DNA of 64,000 nt from an uncultured Clostridia bacterium (GCA_934633985.1 CAKTYU010000004.1:11519-75518); one strand, 5' to 3'; counted from the first letter of the stretch, positions 3,351-12,043 are shown. Program-made: numbers and translations. The notes: generated by a model not told the origin, from the sequence alone.

Positions 3351-4535
3351 TTAGATGAGGTTCTTTTCGTCCTGCTTGCTGAACATGTGCAGCACGTTGC
3401 CGCCGAAGGTGAAGTTTATCCTGTTTCCGTAGCTGAACATCTGATGGGCGCTGCCCTCGAGGTCCATGGTGGGGATTATCACCACAACGTCCTTGCCGTT
3501 GGCCTCCACGTGGAGATGCACGGAGCTTCCCATCATCTCGGATACGTCCACCGTCGCGCTGATGTGCGCCGCCGCGTCGTCTGAGCACAGCATTATGTGC
3601 TCCGGCCTGATGCCGAGGGTTATATCCTGCGGCTCGGCGTTTTTGTCCCTAAGCGCCTGCTGCTTATCCTCGGGCAGGCACACCTTGGCGCCGTCCAGCT
3701 CAATATAGTACCCGTCGGCGTCCTTATCCAGCCTTGCATCGAAGAAGTTCATCTGGGGAGTGCCTATGAAGCCCGCCACGAAGAGGTTCGCGGGGTGGTT
3801 GAACACCTCCTGAGGGGTGCCTATCTGCTGTATGAAGCCGTCCCGCATTATTACTATGCGGTCGCCCAGGGTCATTGCCTCGGTCTGGTCGTGGGTCACG
3901 TAAACGAAGGTGGTATTTATCCTCTGACGCAGCTTTATAAGCTCGGCGCGCATCTGGTTGCGGAGCTTTGCGTCGAGGTTGGAGAGGGGCTCGTCCATCA
4001 GGAATACGGCAGGGTCGCGCACTATCGCCCGCCCTATGGCCACGCGCTGGCGCTGTCCGCCGGAGAGGGCCTTGGGCTTGCGGTCGAGATACTCGGTTAT
4101 GTCCAGTATTTCCGCCGCTTCCCTTACCTTGCGGTCTATCTCGTCCTTAGGGGTTTTTTTGAGCTTGAGCGAGAAGGCCATATTCTCATATACCGTCATG
4201 TGAGGATACAGCGCGTAGTTCTGGAATACCATGGCGATATTCCTGTCCTTGGGGGCCACGTCGTTCATAAGCTTGTCGCCTATGTACAGCTCGCCGGCGG
4301 TGATGTCCTCCAGCCCCGCTATCATACGCAGGGTAGTGGACTTTCCGCATCCGGAGGGGCCAACCAGCACGATAAATTCCTTGTCCGCGATGTCGAGGTT
4401 GAACTCCTGCACCGCCACGACGCCCTCGTCCGTGATCTGAAGGTTGTGCTTCTTTTCGGCCTGTTCCTTGGCCTTTTTCTTGGGCTCGCTGTTGGGGTAG
4501 ACCTTCTTGATGTTTTTCAGGCTTACTTCTGCCAT
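3351..4535 (-). CDS. msmX: orphan sugar ABC transporter ATP-binding protein (MsmX/MalK/UgpC type)
   Basis: Walker A GPSGCGKST, signature LSGGQRQR, Walker B FLMDEPLSNLD, MalK-type C-terminal domain. Close to my recollection of B. subtilis MsmX. No permease or binding-protein gene adjacent. ATG 4535 (MAEVSLKNIKK) chosen by homology; TTG 4571 is the ORF-track start. Confidence 0.9.
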   Translation of the reverse strand: MAEVSLKNIKKVYPNSEPKKKAKEQAEKKHNLQITDEGVVAVQEFNLDIADKEFIVLVGPSGCGKSTTLRMIAGLEDITAGELYIGDKLMNDVAPKDRNIAMVFQNYALYPHMTVYENMAFSLKLKKTPKDEIDRKVREAAEILDITEYLDRKPKALSGGQRQRVAIGRAIVRDPAVFLMDEPLSNLDAKLRNQMRAELIKLRQRINTTFVYVTHDQTEAMTLGDRIVIMRDGFIQQIGTPQEVFNHPANLFVAGFIGTPQMNFFDARLDKDADGYYIELDGAKVCLPEDKQQALRDKNAEPQDITLGIRPEHIMLCSDDAAAHISATVDVSEMMGSSVHLHVEANGKDVVVIIPTMDLEGSAHQMFSYGNRINFTFGGNVLHMFSKQDEKNLI

Positions 4536-4913
4536 ATTCTTTTTTCGGCTGCGACCGTCCTGCCTCCGCAATGAACGGCCTCGGGATAAAGGCGCTTATC
4601 CCATTACGACAGGTCTCCACACTGCCGCACCGCCAGCCGCGGCGGATCTTCTCCTTTTTTAGCCCCTCGCGCGTTATTTTTTAAGTGGAGTAACGCGCAG
4701 GGGTTAAATAGGCTTATTTTATTAAATATAGCACATCCGCCCGCGCCATTTCAACGCCTGCACGCCGTATTTTTTCACTTTTTCCATAAAGAAAAACGGC
4801 GAATTTGTTAAAGGATAAACTTTTCTTGAAAATGCCCCCGCCGATGCTATATTATAGTCTGTGTAGAAATATAATTTCCCCCACAGCTTCTTATGTTCCC
4901 CGGAGGACTTCAA

Positions 4914-5792
4914 ATGTATTGCCTTGACAATATCGACAATATAAAAAACACCGTGCGGCCTAAAAAGACCGCCCACGTTTACGTTCCCTACAACTGCGGC
5001 AGGAAGTGCCCCTTCTGCGAATCCCGCAAGATGTACGATACGCTGGACGTTTCGTTGGATAGGACCCTCGAGGTGCTGCGCCGCATAGCGGATTCCGACA
5101 TCGAGGATATTATGATAACCGGCGGCGAGCCCTGCGACAATCTGGATTATCTCGGCAGGATGCTGGATATCCTCAAGGACAAGATAGTATACGTGAACAC
5201 CCTTTTCCCGTCAGAGTCCGCAAGGGAAACAGCCCATATATTCGACGTGGAATACCCCTGCGTAAAGGGCATAAACGTATCCCGCCACCTTTCCACATAC
5301 GAAAAGGACTCCGCCTTTCTCCACGCCCCCGCCCCAGACGACGTATTGGGCAGCCTTAAGGTCCCGGTACGCATAAACTGCGTGATACAGGATAAGCGCG
5401 CCCCGTTTTCATGGGTGGATTCCGTCGTGCAGCGCTGGGAAAAGCAGCACGCCCGCAAGCCCGATCTCGAGCTGCACTTCCGGGAGAACTTCAACGAGGT
5501 AACGGCGGAGAACCTGCACATACAGGACAGCCCCTTCCTCAAGACGCTGTGCGAAAGCTACAAATACCACTATTACAGCATGGGCACCTCCTTTGACGAC
5601 GTATCCTTCCTGTCGGACAGCGGCATGACGGTGTACTACCACAAGATACTGCCTTACAGTATATGCAAAATAGGCCCCCTCACCATACTGCACGAGATGG
5701 TGGTCTTTCCCGACGCCGAGGTATGCACCGACTGGGACGGCAGCAAGGACGGGCTTGAGGAATACTGCAAATGGGTAAATTATAAGCTATAA
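4914..5792 (+). CDS. radical SAM protein of unknown function, monocistronic
   Basis: CxxxCxxC cluster motif in YNCGRKCPFCESR and a SAM-binding MITGGEP motif. GGAGGA lies 6 nt upstream of ATG 4914 (MYCLDNIDN), so the ORF-track start 4893 is probably too early. Unrecognised C-terminal ~150 aa. Confidence 0.75.
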   Translation: MYCLDNIDNIKNTVRPKKTAHVYVPYNCGRKCPFCESRKMYDTLDVSLDRTLEVLRRIADSDIEDIMITGGEPCDNLDYLGRMLDILKDKIVYVNTLFPSESARETAHIFDVEYPCVKGINVSRHLSTYEKDSAFLHAPAPDDVLGSLKVPVRINCVIQDKRAPFSWVDSVVQRWEKQHARKPDLELHFRENFNEVTAENLHIQDSPFLKTLCESYKYHYYSMGTSFDDVSFLSDSGMTVYYHKILPYSICKIGPLTILHEMVVFPDAEVCTDWDGSKDGLEEYCKWVNYKL

Positions 5793-5796
5793 CCGC

Positions 5797-5826
5797 AAAA
5801 AAGGCCGGATCGCTCCGGCCTTTTTG
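5797..5826. terminator. bidirectional terminator between convergent radical SAM and GNAT genes
   Basis: AAAAAA-GGCCGGA-TCGC-TCCGGCC-TTTTT. Confidence 0.75.
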
Positions 5827-5836
5827 TTTTGTCGCG

Positions 5837-6388
5837 TCATATTTCCTTTATCATGGTGAATAGGCCGAGGCGCTTACCGTCCCGGCTGTGTATCGCGTTG
5901 GGAAGCTCCCCCGTCACCCGATAGCCCAGCCCTTCATAAAGGCCCCGCGCCCTGTCGTTGCCCTCTATAAATTCCAGCTCCATCTGGCTTATGCCCATGG
6001 CCTTGGCCTGCTTCTCAAGGGCGTTCATCATTATCGTGCCGAGGCCTCTGCCCCAGTATTTGCTTATCACGCTTATGCCCAGCCGCGCCCTGTGCCGCAC
6101 CTTGGACTTGGTCATGCCGGCGCAGTTCAGCGAGCACAGGCCGGCAAGCTCGCCGTCTATATCGCACACCAGCAGCAGCGAGCCGTCCGACTCGTTGCTC
6201 ATCTGTATGAATGCCGCCTCGCTCTCTTCACTCCGTATTACCTCGTCCGGGTAGTGCATGAGGTATTCTGTCTCGCCGGAGCATATACGCATGAGCTCCA
6301 GCACCTTGCCGCCCTCGCAGGGCTCCGGGTTTCGCAGCACGCCGTATGTCTTATCCTTAAGCCGTATAAGCTCAGCATCGTATCTCAT
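5837..6388 (-). CDS. GNAT family N-acetyltransferase
   Basis: Acetyl-CoA binding motif YWGRGLGTIMM. ATG 6388 (MRYDAELIRL) overlaps the upstream stop as TGATG, so the 216-aa ORF-track version is probably over-extended. Confidence 0.8.
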   Translation of the reverse strand: MRYDAELIRLKDKTYGVLRNPEPCEGGKVLELMRICSGETEYLMHYPDEVIRSEESEAAFIQMSNESDGSLLLVCDIDGELAGLCSLNCAGMTKSKVRHRARLGISVISKYWGRGLGTIMMNALEKQAKAMGISQMELEFIEGNDRARGLYEGLGYRVTGELPNAIHSRDGKRLGLFTMIKEI

Positions 6389-7305
6389 CAGACGTCCTCG
6401 ACATTCTTCCTTCCCGCCCTGCGCCTGCGCTTGCCCTTCAGGCTCGCATCCATCTTGAGCGCACCGTGGGGGCATACGGTTATGCACTTGCCGCAGCGTA
6501 TGCAGTCGGTAGAGTTTGGCTGCTTATATACGGGTATATCCAAGCCGCAGGCCCTCTGGCATGCACCGCACTCCACGCAGCGGCTCTTGCTCACCCGCAT
6601 CCTTACCAGCGACACGGGATTCATAAGGCCATATATGGCTCCAAGAGGGCAAAGATAGCGGCAGAACGGGCGGAACACGAGTATAGAGCCCGTGATTATC
6701 ACCACCAGCAAAAACAGCTTCCATGTAAACAGCCAGCCTATGACGCTTCTAAGCTCCCGGTTCAGGGCGAGCAGAGGTATGCCGCCCAGCAGCGTGCCGG
6801 AGGGGCATATCCACTTGCAGAACCACGGCATGCCCACGCCGTATGAGCCCTTGGCAAGCATGGGCAGCAGTATGCACATGACCACGAGCACCACATAGCG
6901 CAGCTTGCGAAGGTAATTCTCGCCGGGCAGCCGCCGTATCTTTTTCTTTGGCGGTATCTTGAAGAGCAGGTCCTGCACCAGCCCGAAGGGGCATAGCCAG
7001 CCGCACACTATCCTGCCCAGCAGCGCGCCTATCGTTATAAGCGTGCCCAATACGTAAAACGGGAAACCGCTCACCCTTCCCGCCAGCGCATTTTGCAGCG
7101 AGCCCATGGGGCACGCGCCCCATGCGCCCGGGCAGGAATAGCAGTTCAGTCCCGGGACGCATATATTCTTGGCGCCGCCCTGATATATTGTCCCGTTTAT
7201 ATAGCCCGAGGCATAGCTGTTTGTCAGCAGCGTCCAGCAGGCCTGAAAATATACGCGCGCCCTAATAAAGGGGTGGTTCTTCTTTTTTCTTTTTTTCTTA
7301 TCCAA
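6388..7305 (-). CDS. integral-membrane 4Fe-4S polyferredoxin (NapH/MauN/RdhC-like)
   Basis: N-terminal CYSCPGAWGACP motif, several hydrophobic helices, and C-terminal 2x[4Fe-4S] motifs CVECGACQRAC and CIRCGKCITVCP. The only possible start is TTG 7305, which overlaps the upstream small ORF by 8 nt. Confidence 0.8.
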   Translation of the reverse strand: MDKKKRKKKNHPFIRARVYFQACWTLLTNSYASGYINGTIYQGGAKNICVPGLNCYSCPGAWGACPMGSLQNALAGRVSGFPFYVLGTLITIGALLGRIVCGWLCPFGLVQDLLFKIPPKKKIRRLPGENYLRKLRYVVLVVMCILLPMLAKGSYGVGMPWFCKWICPSGTLLGGIPLLALNRELRSVIGWLFTWKLFLLVVIITGSILVFRPFCRYLCPLGAIYGLMNPVSLVRMRVSKSRCVECGACQRACGLDIPVYKQPNSTDCIRCGKCITVCPHGALKMDASLKGKRRRRAGRKNVEDV

Positions 7306-7438
7306 GGCCGATACACTCCATGCATATCATTATGGCCTTTTGCATGACGGCGTTGGCCTCGCCCTTTACCGCGCCTATGACGATAAAGGCCAGCCCTGCC
7401 GCTAAAAGTGCCAATGATATAATACTACGCTTTTTCAT
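7298..7438 (-). CDS. 46-aa single-TM CXXC peptide (CD1871A-like), absent from the ORF track
   Basis: Own translation: MKKRSIISLALLAAGLAFIVIGAVKGEANAVMQKAIMICMECIGLG. Positive N-terminus, one TM helix, C-terminal C-M-E-C-I-G-L-G. Overlaps both neighbouring genes (14 nt upstream, 8 nt downstream). Matches my recollection of the NCBI 'CD1871A family CXXC motif-containing protein'. Confidence 0.65.
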   Translation of the reverse strand: MKKRSIISLALLAAGLAFIVIGAVKGEANAVMQKAIMICMECIGLG

Positions 7439-8351
7439 TCATCACCGTTTCTATAATGTCTATCCATTTCTGCTTGCTCTTTGCGCCGTGGACCACCGTT
7501 ATGAGCCTGCCCTCGGAGTCGTAAAACTTCGTCGTGGGCACCGTATTTACGCCCTGGAGCATGGTTTTTATCACGCTCGAGCTGGCGGTAATGTTGGTGA
7601 AATTGCCCCCTGCGCTTTCAAACATCTCCTTGGAGCTGAGCACCATATCGGGATTCTCCGGCATCGCGTCCGCCGAGAGGCCGATTATCCTGAAGCCGCT
7701 TCCCTTGTATTCCCTTGCCAATTCTGAGAGATCACCCATCTCTTGCAGACAGCTCGGTCAGGTACGGGTCCAGATGTTCACCATGGTCACGCTGCTCTTG
7801 CCGAACAGGCTGCTGCCGACGCTGCTGCCGTCCAGCGTGGTGGTCTCGAAGCTGATGGCCTTTGAGCCGCTCTCATAGGAGAGGGACTGCTTTGTATAGT
7901 TGCCGGCGTATGGCGTCCTTACTTTTTTCTCGGGCGCGGAGGTAGGAGTAGCCTCGGGCTTTTTCTCGTCCTTCTTTTCGTCCTTCTTGCCGTCCTTTTT
8001 GCCGTCCTGCTTCTCTTCCTTCCGCTCCTTGCCGCCGCTCTGCTTGTCCTCCTGTTTTTGGGGCCGCCTTGTGGGCGTTGGCGTGGGCTCGGGGGTGGGT
8101 ACCGGGGTAACTACGGGCTGCGGGGTGGTATATCCGGTTATGGCGACAAAGGTAGTGTCGTCGCCGTAATGCTCGTCGTCCAGATATCCTACGTCCACCA
8201 TGACAAAGGTGTCCGCCTGCGCCCTTTTCGCGCAGCCAAAGGAGCATAAAAAGCCCGCCGCCAGCACTGCCGGCAAAACCCTTTTGGCCGCCCTGTGAGC
8301 ATGTCCCCTTTTACTTGCGGCACATGCCGAATATTCTTCCTTCTTATACAT
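7425..8351 (-). CDS. membrane-anchored TlpA/ResA-type thioredoxin-fold protein with in-frame UGA (probable selenocysteine) at 7758-7760
   Basis: ORFs 7758..8351 and 7425..7739 share a frame (612 nt apart). Read-through gives ...GKSSVTMVNIWTRT-[UGA]-PSCLQEMGDLSELAREYKGSGFRIIGLSAD...VPTTKFYDSEGRL. The UGA is at the first Cys of the WCxxC motif. N-terminal hydrophobic anchor with possible lipobox, then a Pro/Thr- and Lys/Glu-rich linker. Confidence 0.7.
7723..7749 (-). promoter_or_regulatory. candidate bacterial SECIS hairpin
   Basis: mRNA after UGA: CCGAGCUG-U-CUG-CA-AGAGAU-GGGUG-AUCUCU-CAG-A. Six-bp upper stem, GGGUG apical loop, 3-4 bp lower stem with a 2-nt bulge. The first loop G is 21 nt after the UGA. 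Confidence 0.55.
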
Positions 8352-8357
8352 GATTTG

Positions 8358-8386
8358 ATTATAAATCCCGCGAAAAAGGCTGTCAA
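8358..8386 (-). promoter_or_regulatory. consensus sigma-A promoter placed for a leaderless transcript
   Basis: Minus strand reads TTGACA (8386-8381), 17-nt spacer, TATAAT (8363-8358), then CAAATC and ATG (8351). The A of ATG is 7 nt after the -10 hexamer. No SD sequence is possible. Confidence 0.6.
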
Positions 8387-9120: not shown

Positions 9121-11763
9121 TTACCCCTGCAGCTCCGCAAGGCGATGCTCCAGCTTGGATAGCATATCCTTAGCGACCTCTAACTTGCCCTTTTCCTCGT
9201 TTATGACCTTTTCCGGGGCCTTGGCGACGAAGCCCGGGTTGCTGAGCTTGCCCTCTGCGCGGGCGACCTCGCCCTTCATGCGGCTTATCTCCTTGCTCAC
9301 CCTCTCTATTTCCTTATCTATGTCGATAAGCTGATCCAGAGGTATGAAGGCCTCGCCCATGGCGCATACGGCGTTTACCGCTCCCTTGGGTATGCCGCCC
9401 TTATCCTGCTGCACTATCACGTTCTCCGCGCCCGCCAGCTTCATAAGGTATGCCCTTGCCATCTCGAAGGCGGGGGCGTTCTCCGCGGGGGTCACCATGT
9501 ATACGGCGGTGCGCCTTGCGGGGGGTACGTTCATCTCCGCCCGTAGGTTCCTTATGGAGCGGATAACGTCCATGACGCCCTCCATCTCCTCCGCCTCCTT
9601 TGCAAACTCCAGCGCGTCGCTGTGCTTGGGCCAGCTTGCGCACATTATGGTCTCCTCCGCGTTGGGCAGGCTCTGATAAAGCTCCTCCGTTATGAACGGC
9701 ATGAAGGGATGGAGCAGCTTCATGGAATCCCCCAGCACCCGCACAAGTATGGACTTCACGTTTGCCTTGGCGCTCTCGTCCTCACCGTAAAGGCGGGGCT
9801 TCGCCATCTCTATGTACCAGTCGCAGAACTCGGTCCATATAAAATCATATACCTTCTGCGCGGCGACGTTGAGCTCGAAGTTATCCATGTTGGAGGTGAC
9901 CTCCCCCACGACGGCGTTGAGCCTGTGGAGTATCCACTTGTCGGCTATATCCAGCCTCGCCATGTCTATATCGCCTATCTTATCGTCCCCTAAGTTCATC
10001 TGGACAAAGCGGGAGGCGTTGTAGACCTTGTTGCAGAAGTTCCTTGCGGCCTCCACCTTTTTATTGGAAAAGCGCATGTCGTTGCCGGCGCTGTTTCCGG
10101 TGACGAGGCTGAAGCGCAGTGAATCCGCGCCGTAGTCCTTTATTATTTCGAGGGGATCTATGCCGTTGCCCAGGGATTTGGACATCTTGCGGCCCAGCTC
10201 GTCGCGGACTATGCCGTGTATGTACACCGTGTCGAAGGGTATCCTGCCCATGACCTTGGTTCCGAACACTATCATTCTGGCTACCCAGAAGAAGATTATG
10301 TCGTAGCCGGTGACGAGGGTGCTGGTGGGGTAGAAGTATTCCAGCTCGGGGGTCTTGTCCGGCCAGCCCAGCGTGGAGAAGGGCCACATGCCGGAGCTGA
10401 ACCACGTATCCAGCACGTCCTCGTCCTGATGCACCTTGGCTCCGCATACCGGGCATTTTTCCGGCGGGTCCAAGGTTACCTCGATATGGCCGCAGTCGTT
10501 ATTCTCGCAGTAGTAGGCGGGTATCCTGTGGCCCCACCAGAGCTGGCGGGATATGCACCAATCCCTGATGTTGTACATCCAGTTGAAGTAGGTCTTGTTG
10601 AACCTTTCCGGCACGAACCTCACCTCGCCGTCCTCCACCACGCGGATAGCCTCCTTTGCAAGGGGCTTCATGCTCACGAACCACTGGAGGCTGGTGAGGG
10701 GCTCGACGGTATTGTGGCAGCGATAGCATACGCCTACGTTGTGGGCGTAATCCTCTATCTTTACGAGGTTGCCGCTCTTTTCCATATCCGCCACGATAGC
10801 CCTGCGGCACTCCATGGTAGTCATGCCGGTATAGGGCGCTCCCAGCTCGTTGAGGTACCCGTCGTCGGTGAATACCCTTATGCGGGGCAGATTGTGGCGC
10901 ACGCCCACCTCGAAATCGTTGGGGTCGTGGCAGGGGGTGATCTTAACCGCGCCGGAGCCGAACTCCTTATCCACGTATTCGTCCGCAACTATGGGTATCT
11001 CGCGGCCCACTATTGGCACCACCACGGTCTTGCCGATAAGCCCCGCATAGCGCTCGTCCTCCGGGTTCACGGCTATGGCGGTATCGCCGGGTATGGTTTC
11101 GGGGCGGGTGGTGGCGCAGATTATGGAATAGCTCTTGTCGGGCGCGTCATAGCGGACGTGCCAGAGGTGGCTGGCCTGCTCCTCGTATTCCACCTCGGCG
11201 TCGGAAAGCGCAGTCTGGCATACGGGGCACCAGTTGATTATCCTGTCGTCCCTATATATCAGGCCTTCTTTGTAAAGGTCTACGAATACCTTGGTTACGG
11301 CCCTGTTGCAGCCGTCGTCCATGGTGAAGCGCTCGCGCTCCCAGTCGCAGGAGGAGCCCATCTTGCGAAGCTGCTTTACTATTGCCCCGCCGTACTCGCG
11401 CCGCCACTCCCAGGCGCGCCGGAGGAACGCCTCGCGGCCTATGTCGCGCTTGTCTATGCCCTCCTTTGCCATCTCGGTAACTATCTTGACCTCGGTGGCT
11501 ATGGAGGCGTGATCCGTGCCGGGGAGCCACAGCGCCTCATAGCCGCTCATGCGCTTATAGCGTATTATGGAATCCTGCAGCGTGTTGTCCAGCGCGTGTC
11601 CCATGTGCAGCTTGCCGGTTATGTTTGGCGGCGGCATAACTATGCAGTAAGGCTTCTTTTCGGGGTTGGGCTCCGCATGGAAGTAGCCCTTGCTTTCCCA
11701 GCCTTCGTAAAGCCTGCTTTCCACATCGGAATGGTCATAGGTCTTGGGCAGTTCTTTGCTCAT
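9121..11763 (-). CDS. valS: valine--tRNA ligase
   Basis: 880 aa. HIGH-type motif PPNITGKLHMGHAL, KMSKS motif present, C-terminal coiled coil. Confidence 0.97.
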   Translation of the reverse strand: MSKELPKTYDHSDVESRLYEGWESKGYFHAEPNPEKKPYCIVMPPPNITGKLHMGHALDNTLQDSIIRYKRMSGYEALWLPGTDHASIATEVKIVTEMAKEGIDKRDIGREAFLRRAWEWRREYGGAIVKQLRKMGSSCDWERERFTMDDGCNRAVTKVFVDLYKEGLIYRDDRIINWCPVCQTALSDAEVEYEEQASHLWHVRYDAPDKSYSIICATTRPETIPGDTAIAVNPEDERYAGLIGKTVVVPIVGREIPIVADEYVDKEFGSGAVKITPCHDPNDFEVGVRHNLPRIRVFTDDGYLNELGAPYTGMTTMECRRAIVADMEKSGNLVKIEDYAHNVGVCYRCHNTVEPLTSLQWFVSMKPLAKEAIRVVEDGEVRFVPERFNKTYFNWMYNIRDWCISRQLWWGHRIPAYYCENNDCGHIEVTLDPPEKCPVCGAKVHQDEDVLDTWFSSGMWPFSTLGWPDKTPELEYFYPTSTLVTGYDIIFFWVARMIVFGTKVMGRIPFDTVYIHGIVRDELGRKMSKSLGNGIDPLEIIKDYGADSLRFSLVTGNSAGNDMRFSNKKVEAARNFCNKVYNASRFVQMNLGDDKIGDIDMARLDIADKWILHRLNAVVGEVTSNMDNFELNVAAQKVYDFIWTEFCDWYIEMAKPRLYGEDESAKANVKSILVRVLGDSMKLLHPFMPFITEELYQSLPNAEETIMCASWPKHSDALEFAKEAEEMEGVMDVIRSIRNLRAEMNVPPARRTAVYMVTPAENAPAFEMARAYLMKLAGAENVIVQQDKGGIPKGAVNAVCAMGEAFIPLDQLIDIDKEIERVSKEISRMKGEVARAEGKLSNPGFVAKAPEKVINEEKGKLEVAKDMLSKLEHRLAELQG

Positions 11764-11796: not shown

Positions 11797-12030
11797 CAAT
11801 AAAAAAATCCGCCCCGCCCTTTCATTCAAAGGACGAGCGGACCCGCGGTACCACCTTTATTGAGCGCAGCGCGCTCCTCTTTTGCGCCGTAACGGGGCGC
11901 GCCCGCCGGGGGCTACCTGTTATTTCACCTCCGGGGCTCCTAAGCGACCTTCTGCCCTCTCCTTGCAAACAGCCCTCTCAGCCGGCGGGGCCGTCTCTCT
12001 TGTGCGGTATGAGCGCATACTCCTCTTAAT
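11797..12030 (-). promoter_or_regulatory. T-box leader (valine-specific) controlling valS
   Basis: Conserved T-box AAUAAAGGUGGUACCGCGGG (RC of 11841-11860). Overlapping terminator TCCGCTCGTCCTTT-GAATG-AAAGGGCGGGGCGGA + TTTTTTT (11801-11841). Candidate specifier GUC (Val) in AGAAG-GUC-GC at 11946-11948. The 5' end is approximate. Confidence 0.85.
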
Positions 12031-12043
12031 CCTTGCCATTATT

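Follow-up and report, generated by a model that had tools for sequence, protein, structure and literature searches.

Membrane proteins of the DsbD, CcdA and ScsB type feed exported thioredoxin-fold proteins such as TlpA, ResA, CcmG, StoA or Etrx, and in Firmicutes TlpA-like genes usually lie beside ccdA. In an operon of an uncultured Clostridia bacterium, and at related loci, we find a comparable arrangement with the same putative output, in which a membrane protein is encoded beside an exported, often lipid-anchored TlpA-like thioredoxin of the same fold family with a reducing CxxC. The membrane partner, however, has no homology to DsbD or CcdA, as neither it nor the small peptide encoded with it matched PF02683 or a related family in a profile search. 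It differs further in its predicted Fe-S clusters, in ten extra cysteines, in the separate 46-aa CxxC peptide, and in a likely donor that would be a one-electron carrier such as ferredoxin rather than cytoplasmic thioredoxin.

The partner is a NapH-like polyferredoxin. PF12801 proteins of the NapH-like type are seen as modular conduits that take electrons across the membrane to extracytosolic partners (PMC8238504). With NapH and the NapH-like conduits (NosR, PceC/RdhC and flavinylated NapH-like systems) the polyferredoxin shares four transmembrane (TM) helices, a pair of CX3CP motifs facing the cytoplasm and, at the C-terminus, a 2x[4Fe-4S] domain, but it is only 24% identical to E. coli NapH and falls below the NapH/MauN cutoffs (TIGR02163, 83 bits against 213.05; NF007013, 76.2 against 234). 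Unlike NapH, it is encoded without NapG, a nap/nos/rdh context or an FMN-binding domain, the neighbours of the operon in the window include MntP and ValS, and no nap genes are found among the adjacent genes of 80 related loci. It has six more invariant cysteines in predicted outer loops and an apparently obligatory CxxC micropeptide, and its extracytosolic partner is of the thioredoxin fold rather than a flavoprotein or NapG. The hosts are also mostly fermenters, which would be expected to lack quinones.

Three other systems bear a partial resemblance. FTR and HdrB, by analogy only, use Fe-S chemistry to convert one-electron ferredoxin input into two-electron disulfide reduction ending on thioredoxin, but neither FTR nor Hdr is related in sequence, and both are soluble or peripheral and confined to one compartment, whereas the reaction proposed here would span the membrane. 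[quoted passage not shown] The selenocysteine (Sec)-containing 'Prx-like thiol:disulfide oxidoreductase' and 'thiol:disulfide interchange protein' families (PMC1794560) also have a thioredoxin fold, and a few of their lineages carry Sec in place of the N-terminal active-site cysteine while Cys homologs predominate, but the protein described here belongs to a peptide-polyferredoxin-linked subfamily. A search of the literature found no paper describing a thioredoxin/peptide/polyferredoxin module.

The four-gene operon

The window, that is, the whole 64-kb stretch of DNA analysed, contains four overlapping genes bracketed by one promoter and one terminator (Table 1). The four-gene layout in a preliminary description of this DNA, with its coordinates and overlaps, is correct in every detail, all genes lying on the minus strand. 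The small ORF overlaps the end of the thioredoxin gene by 14 nt and the start of the polyferredoxin gene by 8 nt, and the GNAT ATG and the polyferredoxin TGA have one base in common (TGATG). Because 6 nt separate the -10 box from the thioredoxin ATG (position 8351), the operon mRNA is probably leaderless or nearly so. The terminator hairpin closes both the operon and the convergent radical-SAM gene.

Table 1. Positions of the operon's genes and signals, and of the convergent gene, within the window
Feature	Position	Strand	Basis
Sigma-70-type promoter, TTGACA-17 nt-TATAAT	8358..8386	-	12/12 consensus match
Exported TlpA/ResA-like thioredoxin-fold protein (predicted), 308 aa	7425..8351	-	Redoxin/AhpC-TSA matches
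In-frame TGA, predicted selenocysteine (U-P-S-C)	7758..7760	-	alignment to Cys homologs
SECIS-like hairpin, UCUG-CA-AGAGAU / GGGUG / AUCUCU-CAGA	7723..7749	-	folding
46-aa CD1871A-family peptide	7298..7438	-	NF040920
NapH-like membrane polyferredoxin, 305 aa, TTG start	6388..7305	-	Fer4_5 x2
GNAT acetyltransferase, 183 aa	5837..6388	-	Acetyltransf_1
Bidirectional intrinsic terminator, 12-bp hairpin, T-runs on both strands	5798..5825	.	
Radical-SAM gene, convergent	4893..5792	other strand from operon	

The thioredoxin-like protein begins with a signal or anchor made up of a basic n-region and 16 hydrophobic residues, followed by AQA; a linker rich in Pro/Thr and Lys/Glu then leads to a Redoxin domain. 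It matches Pfam Redoxin at 36.8 bits (cutoff 26.6) and AhpC-TSA at 39.3 bits (cutoff 26). Its best NCBIfam matches are ResA, DsbE and TlpA, all below their equivalog or subfamily cutoffs in the profile search (ResA, 47.5 bits against 170), and it is therefore best described as a superfamily member with no named ortholog. The active-site motif, NIWTRT-U-PSC-LQEMGDL, fits the consensus of 57 syntenic homologs, NxWxTxCxPCxxEMP (also given as NxWxTxCxPCIxEMPxL), among which the active site is CGPC in 28, CPPC in six and CNPC in six. A hydrophobic N-terminal signal or anchor is present in 54/57 of these homologs and a lipobox-like motif is predicted in at least 36. By these features the syntenic thioredoxins appear to be of the exported, reducing type, in agreement with the extracytoplasmic location first suggested for the window protein.

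Every Cys-containing homolog has the first Cys of its CxxC at the aligned position of the predicted Sec, and the TGA with both its flanks is kept in all seven sequences of the window lineage, which fall into two sub-lineages. All of the more than 60 other homologs have Cys at this position. Sec thus appears to be confined to the window's own lineage rather than being a general feature of the module; we propose that the exchange of Cys for Sec has tuned the thioredoxin in that lineage. The candidate SECIS begins 8 nt after the UGA and has 4+6 bp and a G-rich apical loop, GGGUG, from 21 nt after the UGA. The hairpin is present in both the MFE and the centroid folds, the z-score of its 71-nt window is -0.14 (not significant), and it matched no family in an Rfam search. 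Two lineages that differ at flanking synonymous sites are identical over the 35 nt that follow the UGA, so that covariation cannot be assessed. The sole tRNA in the window is a tRNA-Glu.

Conservation of the peptide and its neighbours

The small ORF encodes exactly MKKRSIISLALLAAGLAFIVIGAVKGEANAVMQKAIMICMECIGLG. The N-terminus of this peptide is basic; a single TM helix comes next, and the C-terminal motif is QKAIMICMECIGLG, in which the CxxC lies four residues from the C-terminus. It matches NCBIfam NF040920 at 58.4 bits (cutoff 32; E=4.5e-16) over model positions 2-38 of 38, and the family name given in the preliminary description, 'CD1871A family CXXC motif-containing protein', was right. 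The hallmark of the family, a length of about 45-60 aa, one TM helix and KAxxIC[LMT]ECIG[IL]G at the extreme C-terminus, is present here, and K34, C39, C42, G44 and G46 are invariant in alignments of 21 and of 67 members. The family forms 1,907 clusters at 50% identity (E<=0.001) and is present in the genomes of at least 548 species. Longer members have extra N-terminal TM helices, always with the motif at the extreme C-terminus, and the peptide also forms the C-terminal domain of multi-TM proteins of 240-300 aa. Two diverged strains differ in the small ORF at six nucleotides, all in third positions and all synonymous. As all six differences are synonymous and the family comprises so many clusters, the ORF is more than a chance reading frame and is, as had been claimed, a real gene conserved at the protein level.

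The positive-inside N-terminus that was proposed for the peptide is borne out in sequence-based topology by 61/67 members of the family, and the peptide is predicted to be N-in. Its last 12 residues are very hydrophobic, so that the tail with the CxxC could re-enter the membrane.

A census of 80 species loci, from Clostridia, Treponema, Atopobiaceae, Dialister, Acidobacteriota and Aminicenantes, extends the trio of thioredoxin, peptide and polyferredoxin far beyond the window genome. The polyferredoxin gene lies directly 3' of the peptide gene on the same strand in all 79 testable loci, across several phyla. The same TTG start with its 8-nt overlap occurs in 52 of the 79 and arises from the Ile/Leu-Gly codons at the end of the peptide; most other junctions fall within about 20 nt of the peptide stop codon. 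When loci were anchored on the polyferredoxin instead, the trio and the TTG overlap were found in 4/4. The tight geometry that had suggested translational coupling is therefore itself conserved, and the peptide and the polyferredoxin appear to be inseparable. The preliminary description had also placed the only possible start of the polyferredoxin at this TTG, and it is indeed the only plausible one. It lies 8 nt inside the small ORF and is the first start codon past the upstream in-frame stop; not until M67, past the conserved N-terminal Cys motif, does another start-type codon occur, and homologs start at the same place.

A thioredoxin-like gene is adjacent to the pair in 66/80 loci, upstream in 59 (57 found by the HMM census, that of locus L029 and a Redoxin gene in L051) and immediately 3' of the polyferredoxin gene in seven. 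Because it is adjacent in both gene orders, the thioredoxin link seems to survive rearrangement. An adjacent thioredoxin gene is missing in up to 14 loci, three of which (L047, L050 and L065) are too near a contig end. Overall, the trio appears to be conserved across hundreds of species of anaerobic bacteria. No cytoplasmic electron-donor gene is conserved in the neighbourhood of the module in the 80 loci.

The fourth gene of the operon does not share this distribution. The GNAT protein matches Acetyltransf_1 at 56 bits (cutoff 20.7) and reaches no NCBIfam equivalog cutoff, and in the census it was found only in loci L001-L006 and in the window. It had been put forward as a functional member of the module; confined as it is to the window's close relatives, it appears to be a lineage-specific operon passenger outside the conserved module.

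Cysteines of the polyferredoxin

The polyferredoxin has two Fer4_5 domains, with the inner CX3CP pairs C101/C105 and C215/C219, which follow TM2 and TM4, and a 2x[4Fe-4S] domain (C243-C253 and C268-C278) that is predicted to be cytoplasmic. Alignment with E. coli NapH keeps both inner pairs and all eight ferredoxin cysteines. Six further cysteines, C49, C55, C58, C65, C163 and C167, lie in predicted outer loops and are invariant in 53/53 polyferredoxin orthologs. They are also present in the peptide-linked proteins of Treponema, Atopobiaceae, Dialister and Aminicenantes and are absent from E. coli NapH in the alignment, and a peptide-less paralog (L033:9003-9884) retains only the equivalent of C65.

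An AF2 model of the protein (pLDDT 72, pTM 0.72) has TM helices at 12-36, 82-104, 129-150 and 190-209, with outer loops of low confidence (pLDDT 49-65); none of the solved structures covers the membrane domain. Because of the four TM helices and the placement of the Lys/Arg-rich segments at the N-terminus, in loop 2-3 and in the C-terminal domain, the six extra cysteines are predicted to be on the side of the membrane opposite the ferredoxin domain. The assembly of Fe-S clusters outside the cell normally requires Tat export, and a Tat motif is absent, which is why the outer cysteines are more likely to be thiols than cluster ligands.

A possible outward thiol reductase

We read the trio as a conserved three-component module for thiol reduction in the envelope, working as a ferredoxin-driven outward thiol reductase, and give this best reading a probability of roughly one half. 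The trio would then probably move reducing power from the cell interior to the surface. In such a scheme the polyferredoxin and the 46-aa peptide would make up a single membrane complex, its two parts being produced in coupled amounts. Low-potential electrons, for which reduced ferredoxin or flavodoxin of fermentative metabolism is the likely donor, would enter the cytoplasmic 2x[4Fe-4S] domain and pass through the two inner CX3CP pairs, which are common to NapH and may bind another cluster. They would next reach a subfamily-specific Cys-rich site made up of the six outer-loop cysteines and the C-terminal CxxC of the peptide. From here dithiol/disulfide exchange would keep the exported, usually lipid-anchored, TlpA/ResA-like thioredoxin reduced at its active site (CGPC in most species, UPSC in the window), and the reduced thioredoxin could in turn reduce substrates in the envelope. 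We infer both the outward direction of electron flow and the topology of the peptide tail. The module would be a functional parallel of DsbD/CcdA feeding TlpA-like proteins, on a NapH-type Fe-S scaffold and with an FTR/Hdr-like change from one-electron to two-electron chemistry. No CcdA or DsbD is encoded among the genes adjacent to the module or in the 64-kb window, and in 1.23 Mb of sequence, including the whole window, a homolog was found near only one of 86 loci.

That locus, L033, has a classical CcdA and thioredoxin pair 4-5 kb from a peptide-polyferredoxin pair without its own thioredoxin. It fits the unlikely alternative that the dependence is reversed, the peptide and polyferredoxin being clients of a TlpA-like protein that is itself reduced by CcdA encoded elsewhere. 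The eight outer cysteines would then be kept reduced for metal or cofactor binding and the electrons of the complex used otherwise, for example in Cu(II)/Fe(III) reduction. TlpA-family proteins do prepare Cys-based metal sites, for instance TlpA those of ScoI/CoxB, and a cupric reductase of the Fer4_5 type is known in CcoG; the Cys-rich outer site (CxxC, CxxCP, CX3CP) is typical of metal sites; and MntP is encoded beside the operon in the window, with a Cu/Zn-SOD gene a few kb from the operon in some related strains (for example, L001). No metal transporter or chaperone is conserved beside the module in the 80 loci, however, CcdA is absent from 85/86 neighbourhoods, and the fermentative, anaerobic hosts have no obvious cuproenzyme that would need maturation.

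It is also rather improbable that the relay is the same but ends on a thiol/selenol peroxidase at the surface, which the polyferredoxin-peptide complex would recycle. The active site has the classical W-x-x-W-C-G-P-C of TlpA, ResA and thioredoxin, with both cysteines three residues apart, it differs from the Prx PxxxTxxC and from the GPx motif, and the NCBIfam ranking given above likewise points to the ResA, DsbE and TlpA group. A peroxidase would nevertheless accord with the best Pfam matches, AhpC-TSA and Redoxin, with the 14/57 syntenic homologs that also match the glutathione-peroxidase family, and with Sec at the N-terminal active-site position, which favours the chemistry of peroxides, as it does in GPx. 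The neighbours include Rrf2-type redox regulators (6/79 neighbouring genes) and, adjacent in L007, a MerR regulator.

The chances are slim that the genes are co-regulated with no direct relay, the pair being a NapH-like quinol- or membrane-linked redox sensor or assembly factor and the peptide a mere translational leader for the TTG gene. The NapH core of the polyferredoxin, a weak TTG start that would depend on upstream translation and the loci with no adjacent thioredoxin fit such an arrangement. A leader ORF, however, would not hold its five invariant residues and a TM helix over about 1,900 clusters in several phyla, nor would it occur as the C-terminal domain of larger membrane proteins, and the thioredoxin is adjacent in both gene orders. 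A quinol link is further opposed by redox potential, as menaquinol cannot reduce a CGPC thioredoxin (about -270 mV). Finally, a small Cys-containing peptide beside Fe-S proteins and a radical-SAM gene might recall a RiPP precursor (SCIFF/ranthipeptide-like) with the Fe-S protein or the radical-SAM gene product as maturase, but this is hardly credible for a nearly invariant peptide with a TM helix and no leader/core layout, beside a polyferredoxin that has no radical-SAM CxxxCxxC motif and a radical-SAM gene that is convergent and not conserved in the 80 loci.

Returning to the outward thiol reductase, we speculate, at odds that we place slightly short of even, that the peptide and polyferredoxin are a new class of Fe-S-based transmembrane disulfide reductase unrelated to DsbD/CcdA. 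In such a class, exported thioredoxins would draw directly on the low-potential ferredoxin of strict anaerobes, and a 46-aa redox-active microprotein would serve as an obligatory catalytic subunit. If true, this would provide the first functional handle on the role of the CX3CP motifs in NapH-type proteins.

Operon structure and the CD1871A peptide

The four-gene minus-strand operon proposed in the preliminary description, comprising a thioredoxin-like gene, a 46-aa CxxC membrane peptide, a NapH-like polyferredoxin and a GNAT, was confirmed in full, with identical coordinates and an identical 46-aa ORF sequence. The short promoter-to-ATG gap implies a leaderless or near-leaderless mRNA. The flanking malK-I RNA and T-box leader are ordinary, known cis-regulators, and the convergent radical-SAM-like gene is kept in close relatives only. 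In some strains of this lineage (comparison loci L001 and L006) a Cu/Zn superoxide dismutase gene (L001:14132-14698) lies between malK-like and SpoIID/SH3 genes; the window's strain type (L002, L003) lacks it there.

Features of the operon region (window coordinates)
Feature	Coordinates	Strand	Remarks
Promoter TTGACA-17-TATAAT	8386..8358	minus	perfect consensus; 6 nt between its end and the first ATG (8351)
Thioredoxin-like gene	8351..7425	minus	308 aa including readthrough of one in-frame TGA at 7760..7758
Small ORF (peptide, 46 aa)	7438..7298	minus	starts 14 nt ahead of the thioredoxin gene's TAG
Polyferredoxin	7305..6388	minus	TTG start, 8 nt before the small ORF's end (CC-TTG-GAT-AA)
GNAT	6388..5837	minus	ATG start within TGATG
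Terminator hairpin, 12 bp	5798..5825		3' of GNAT
Radical-SAM-like protein, 299 aa	4893-5792	plus	convergent to operon, same terminator hairpin
malK-I RNA	4530-4708	minus	Rfam; upstream of MalK-type ABC ATPase gene (3351..4571)
T-box leader	11826-12042	minus	Rfam; upstream of valS (9121..11763)

The proposed overlaps of the GNAT ATG with the polyferredoxin stop and of the polyferredoxin TTG with the small ORF were both borne out: before M67, which lies past a conserved motif, the polyferredoxin has no start codon other than TTG, and its homologs begin at the equivalent position (for example MDKKKNKKKSHPFIRARIYLQ). A TTG in the polyferredoxin frame lies exactly 8 nt before the end of the peptide stop codon in 52 of 79 loci and in four extra loci, and is built from the [A/C]TT-GGn codons of the peptide's final Ile/Leu-Gly. 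Most other loci have a polyferredoxin ATG within about 20 nt of the peptide stop codon. The Glu codon of C-x-E-C regularly gives a GGAG about 10 nt upstream of the TTG. The geometry of this junction is itself conserved beyond this genome. It points to translational coupling of the peptide and the polyferredoxin, from which we infer that the two products assemble together. That the trio is merely co-regulated is a less likely explanation.

The small ORF is a genuine gene. Its family is catalogued yet unstudied: NCBIfam NF040920 "CD1871A family CXXC motif-containing protein" (58.4 bits, cutoff 32). Lack of conservation at the protein level had been set as a possible refutation; compared with the diverged strain L001, the small ORF has six differences, all third-codon and synonymous, and the flanking genes have mismatches at 109/900 and 178/700 ungapped positions. 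A profile search of 1.84 billion representatives yielded 1,907 family clusters at 50% identity. Most members have 45-60 aa, a basic N-terminus, one TM helix and the motif G-E/D-x3-V-x-x-K-A-x-x-I-C-[LMT]-E-C-I-G-[IL]-G, always at the extreme C-terminus; K34, C39, C42, G44 and G46 are invariant in the family alignment. On this architecture the idea of a RiPP precursor was rejected, and a RiPP role of the peptide is among the less likely explanations of the module; the radical-SAM gene was considered as a peptide maturase and rejected. A few members reach 240-300 aa by the addition of N-terminal TM helices only, and no natural fusions of the peptide to the polyferredoxin or the thioredoxin were seen. 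In seven of these long members (P0196, P0215, P0231, P0239, P0261, P0278 and P0289) about four extra N-terminal TM helices are followed by a Lys/Arg-rich loop and then by the canonical TM helix and CxxC-IGLG C-terminus.

In the literature searched, "CD1871A" was found in no paper and the family is mentioned in none; papers on CD1871 or CD1870 do no more than assign this C. difficile 630 locus to the conjugative transposon CTn5. Since CD1871 is the locus tag that names the family, at least one family copy may be on a mobile element. Some database copies of the peptide are mislabelled "thioredoxin". The peptide is a clear case of a conserved 46-aa subunit often overlooked or misnamed by gene callers, and the module would have a bearing on functional microproteins.

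Distribution of the module

Scanning one genome per species for the peptide pattern gave at least 548 confirmed loci. The module occurs in at least 548 species-level genomes, for the most part Clostridia and Treponema of gut and rumen. Cultivable carriers include Clostridium tetanomorphum, Schaedlerella arabinosiphila, Oribacterium sinus and Christensenella species. The best 80 of these loci were analysed by searching six-frame translations with HMMs built here; they span many Clostridia families, Atopobiaceae, Dialister, Acidobacteriota, Aminicenantes and about ten Treponema and other Spirochaetes. The polyferredoxin directly follows the peptide on the same strand in 79/80 loci, the lone exception running into a contig edge. 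A thioredoxin-like gene is immediately upstream in 59 loci (57 from the HMM census, plus L029 and a Redoxin gene in L051) and immediately downstream of the polyferredoxin in seven, making 66/80 with an adjacent thioredoxin-like gene; three of the remaining 14 are too near a contig end for testing. The order Redoxin, small ORF, polyferredoxin also occurs in four loci anchored on polyferredoxin homologs. The trio co-occurs in several phyla. The GNAT, which the preliminary description had counted in, was found in none of the 80 loci outside the window's own lineage and is rejected as a module member on conservation. No conserved neighbours beyond the trio were found among the 80 loci: Rrf2 regulators account for 6/79 adjacent genes and Pyr_redox_2 proteins for three, and all others are scattered.

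The exported partner in some loci carries, or gives way to, a rhodanese domain. L089 encodes a rhodanese-Redoxin fusion (L089:1921-2865), with an Rrf2 regulator and a Pyr_redox_2 flavoprotein after the polyferredoxin, and in the Aminicenantes locus L085 a rhodanese gene (L085:7063-7992) is upstream of the module. These partners hint that the module's output might include sulfane-sulfur or persulfide chemistry.

Nor is selenocysteine a general feature of the module. The UGA aligns with the first active-site Cys in every thioredoxin homolog and is restricted to the window's lineage (7 sequences). A hairpin (UCUG-CA-AGAGAU / GGGUG / AUCUCU-CAGA) starts 8 nt past the UGA, with a G-rich loop from +21, which we take to be consistent with bacterial SECIS rules. 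It is present in both MFE and centroid folds, and the fold is statistically not unusual; Rfam gave no SECIS match. Two sub-lineages are identical over the 35 nt that follow the UGA, while synonymous sites nearby vary. The only tRNA in the window is tRNA-Glu. Selenocysteine-containing thioredoxin-fold oxidoreductases among predominantly Cys homologs are a known phenomenon (PMC1794560).

Polyferredoxin anatomy and predicted sidedness

Across 53 polyferredoxin orthologs (53-89% identity) eighteen Cys, in four groups, are invariant. C49, C55, C58 and C65 belong to the motif C-VPGLN-C-YS-C-PGAxGx-C-P; C101/C105 and C215/C219 make up the CX3CP motifs that immediately follow TM2 and TM4; C163/C167 are another CX3CP, in the TM3-TM4 loop; the remainder form two CxxCxxCxxxC(P) ferredoxin motifs. 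E. coli NapH (24% identity) has in common only the TM2/TM4 pairs and the ferredoxin domain, whereas its first loop is without Cys and it has W-INP-VS where the polyferredoxin family has W-ICP-SG. Membership of NapH was rejected on score and context. All six extra Cys (C49, C55, C58, C65, C163 and C167) are kept in peptide-linked polyferredoxins of four other phyla, and five of the six are missing from a peptide-less paralog in the Clostridia MAG locus L033.

An AF2 model (pLDDT 72, pTM 0.72) places TM helices at 12-36, 82-104, 129-150 and 190-209, and Lys/Arg-rich segments are found at the N-terminus, in loop 2-3 and in the C-terminal tail. This charge pattern, the need for cytoplasmic Fe-S assembly and the lack of a Tat motif together suggest that the ferredoxin domain and two CX3CP pairs are inside and the six extra Cys outside. 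Such a topology is that established for NapH. Tat-dependent export of the ferredoxin domain, as in the families of PMC5449189, was rejected, there being no twin-arginine motif ahead of the last TM helix. Sequence and fold searches of solved structures matched only a generic 2x[4Fe-4S] domain, with no template for the membrane domain.

The sidedness proposed for the trio also holds for the other two proteins at the level of sequence. Peptide members average 3.0 Lys/Arg before the TM helix, and their net charge is +2.6 on the N-terminal flank against -0.2 on the C-terminal one. The positive-inside rule is followed by 61/67; this bias predicts an N-in, C-out orientation. The last 12 residues of the peptide (AIMICMECIGLG) are strongly hydrophobic, and the tail is probably buried against the polyferredoxin or the bilayer, a re-entrant path being possible. 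The window's thioredoxin-like protein has a basic and hydrophobic N-terminal signal/anchor and a Redoxin/AhpC-TSA thioredoxin fold with the active site NIWTRT-U-PSC-LQEM. A hydrophobic segment at the N-terminus is present in 54 of the 57 syntenic thioredoxins, and a lipobox-like motif in at least 36; those of Treponema have cleavable signal peptides. Their motif NxWxTxCxPCxxEMP is of the TlpA/ResA type (CGPC in 28, CPPC in 6, CNPC in 6).

Gene callers picked downstream starts for the N-terminal fragment of the thioredoxin in related contigs (172-186 aa), which would drop the basic n-region of the signal peptide. Between signal/anchor and Redoxin domain, window positions 7900-8130 (minus strand; residues ~75-150) encode a low-complexity linker, Pro/Thr-rich and then Lys/Glu/Asp-rich. 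Its length seems to vary among close strains, judging by differences in the length of called fragments and by high counts of ungapped mismatches.

A possible thiol-directed electron conduit

A peptide-polyferredoxin-thioredoxin relay is the most economical reading. In it we infer that a complex forms, on which side the peptide tail lies, what donates the electrons, which way they flow and which substrates receive them. The peptide and the polyferredoxin would form one membrane complex with eight subfamily-specific Cys (six plus two) as its output site, and the acceptor would be the adjacent exported, strongly reducing thioredoxin. Electrons would enter at the cytoplasmic 2x[4Fe-4S] domain, in these fermenters probably from reduced ferredoxin, and the change from one-electron to two-electron transfer would take place in an FTR/Hdr-like step. 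A PFOR gene is nearby in the window's relatives; no conserved donor gene was found by the module among the 80 loci, nor was an electron-donor domain found in unusually long polyferredoxin variants, which have only DUF5684 or extra TM segments. Of the relay as originally proposed, the trio, its coupling and its predicted sidedness stand; the GNAT and selenocysteine are not general.

In the main rival explanation the dependence is reversed: the thioredoxin would act on the Cys-rich site, as TlpA does on ScoI, and would not be served by it. With the membrane domain of E. coli DsbD as seed, jackhmmer detected one CcdA-like gene across the 1.23 Mb of loci plus the window. This gene, in L033, adjoins a separate thioredoxin gene, and the presence of such a pair nearby leaves room for the rival. 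Within 5.5 kb (L033:8001-13700) this locus holds a peptide-polyferredoxin pair without its own thioredoxin gene, the second, peptide-less polyferredoxin paralog without outer Cys, and the CcdA-like gene beside the thioredoxin-like gene. It could serve as a natural test case for redundancy versus connection of the polyferredoxin and CcdA systems. A peroxidase as the output of the module is less likely.

If the relay reading is correct, the module would be a NapH-like conduit that carries electrons across the membrane to a thiol/thioredoxin output, and in function an analogue of DsbD/CcdA. NapH-type conduits have been described as modular and paired with flavinylated partners (PMC8238504), whereas the partner here would be a thioredoxin. 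The component families are already catalogued, but the module as a unit appears to be undescribed, and we found nothing relevant in the literature on a polyferredoxin/thioredoxin system or a CcdA alternative. That it represents a truly new class of transmembrane disulfide reductase we put at slightly less than even odds.

To our knowledge, every characterised route by which exported thioredoxin-like proteins receive reducing power runs through DsbD/CcdA/ScsB and cytoplasmic thioredoxin. The processes supplied in this way are cytochrome c maturation, Cu-site assembly, spore cortex synthesis and envelope Met/Cys repair. The module may be an unrecognised second solution that draws on the ferredoxin pool. 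If so, it would have a bearing on surface protection or remodelling by oxygen-sensitive commensals, and on the mechanism of NapH/NosR/RdhC-type membrane Fe-S proteins.
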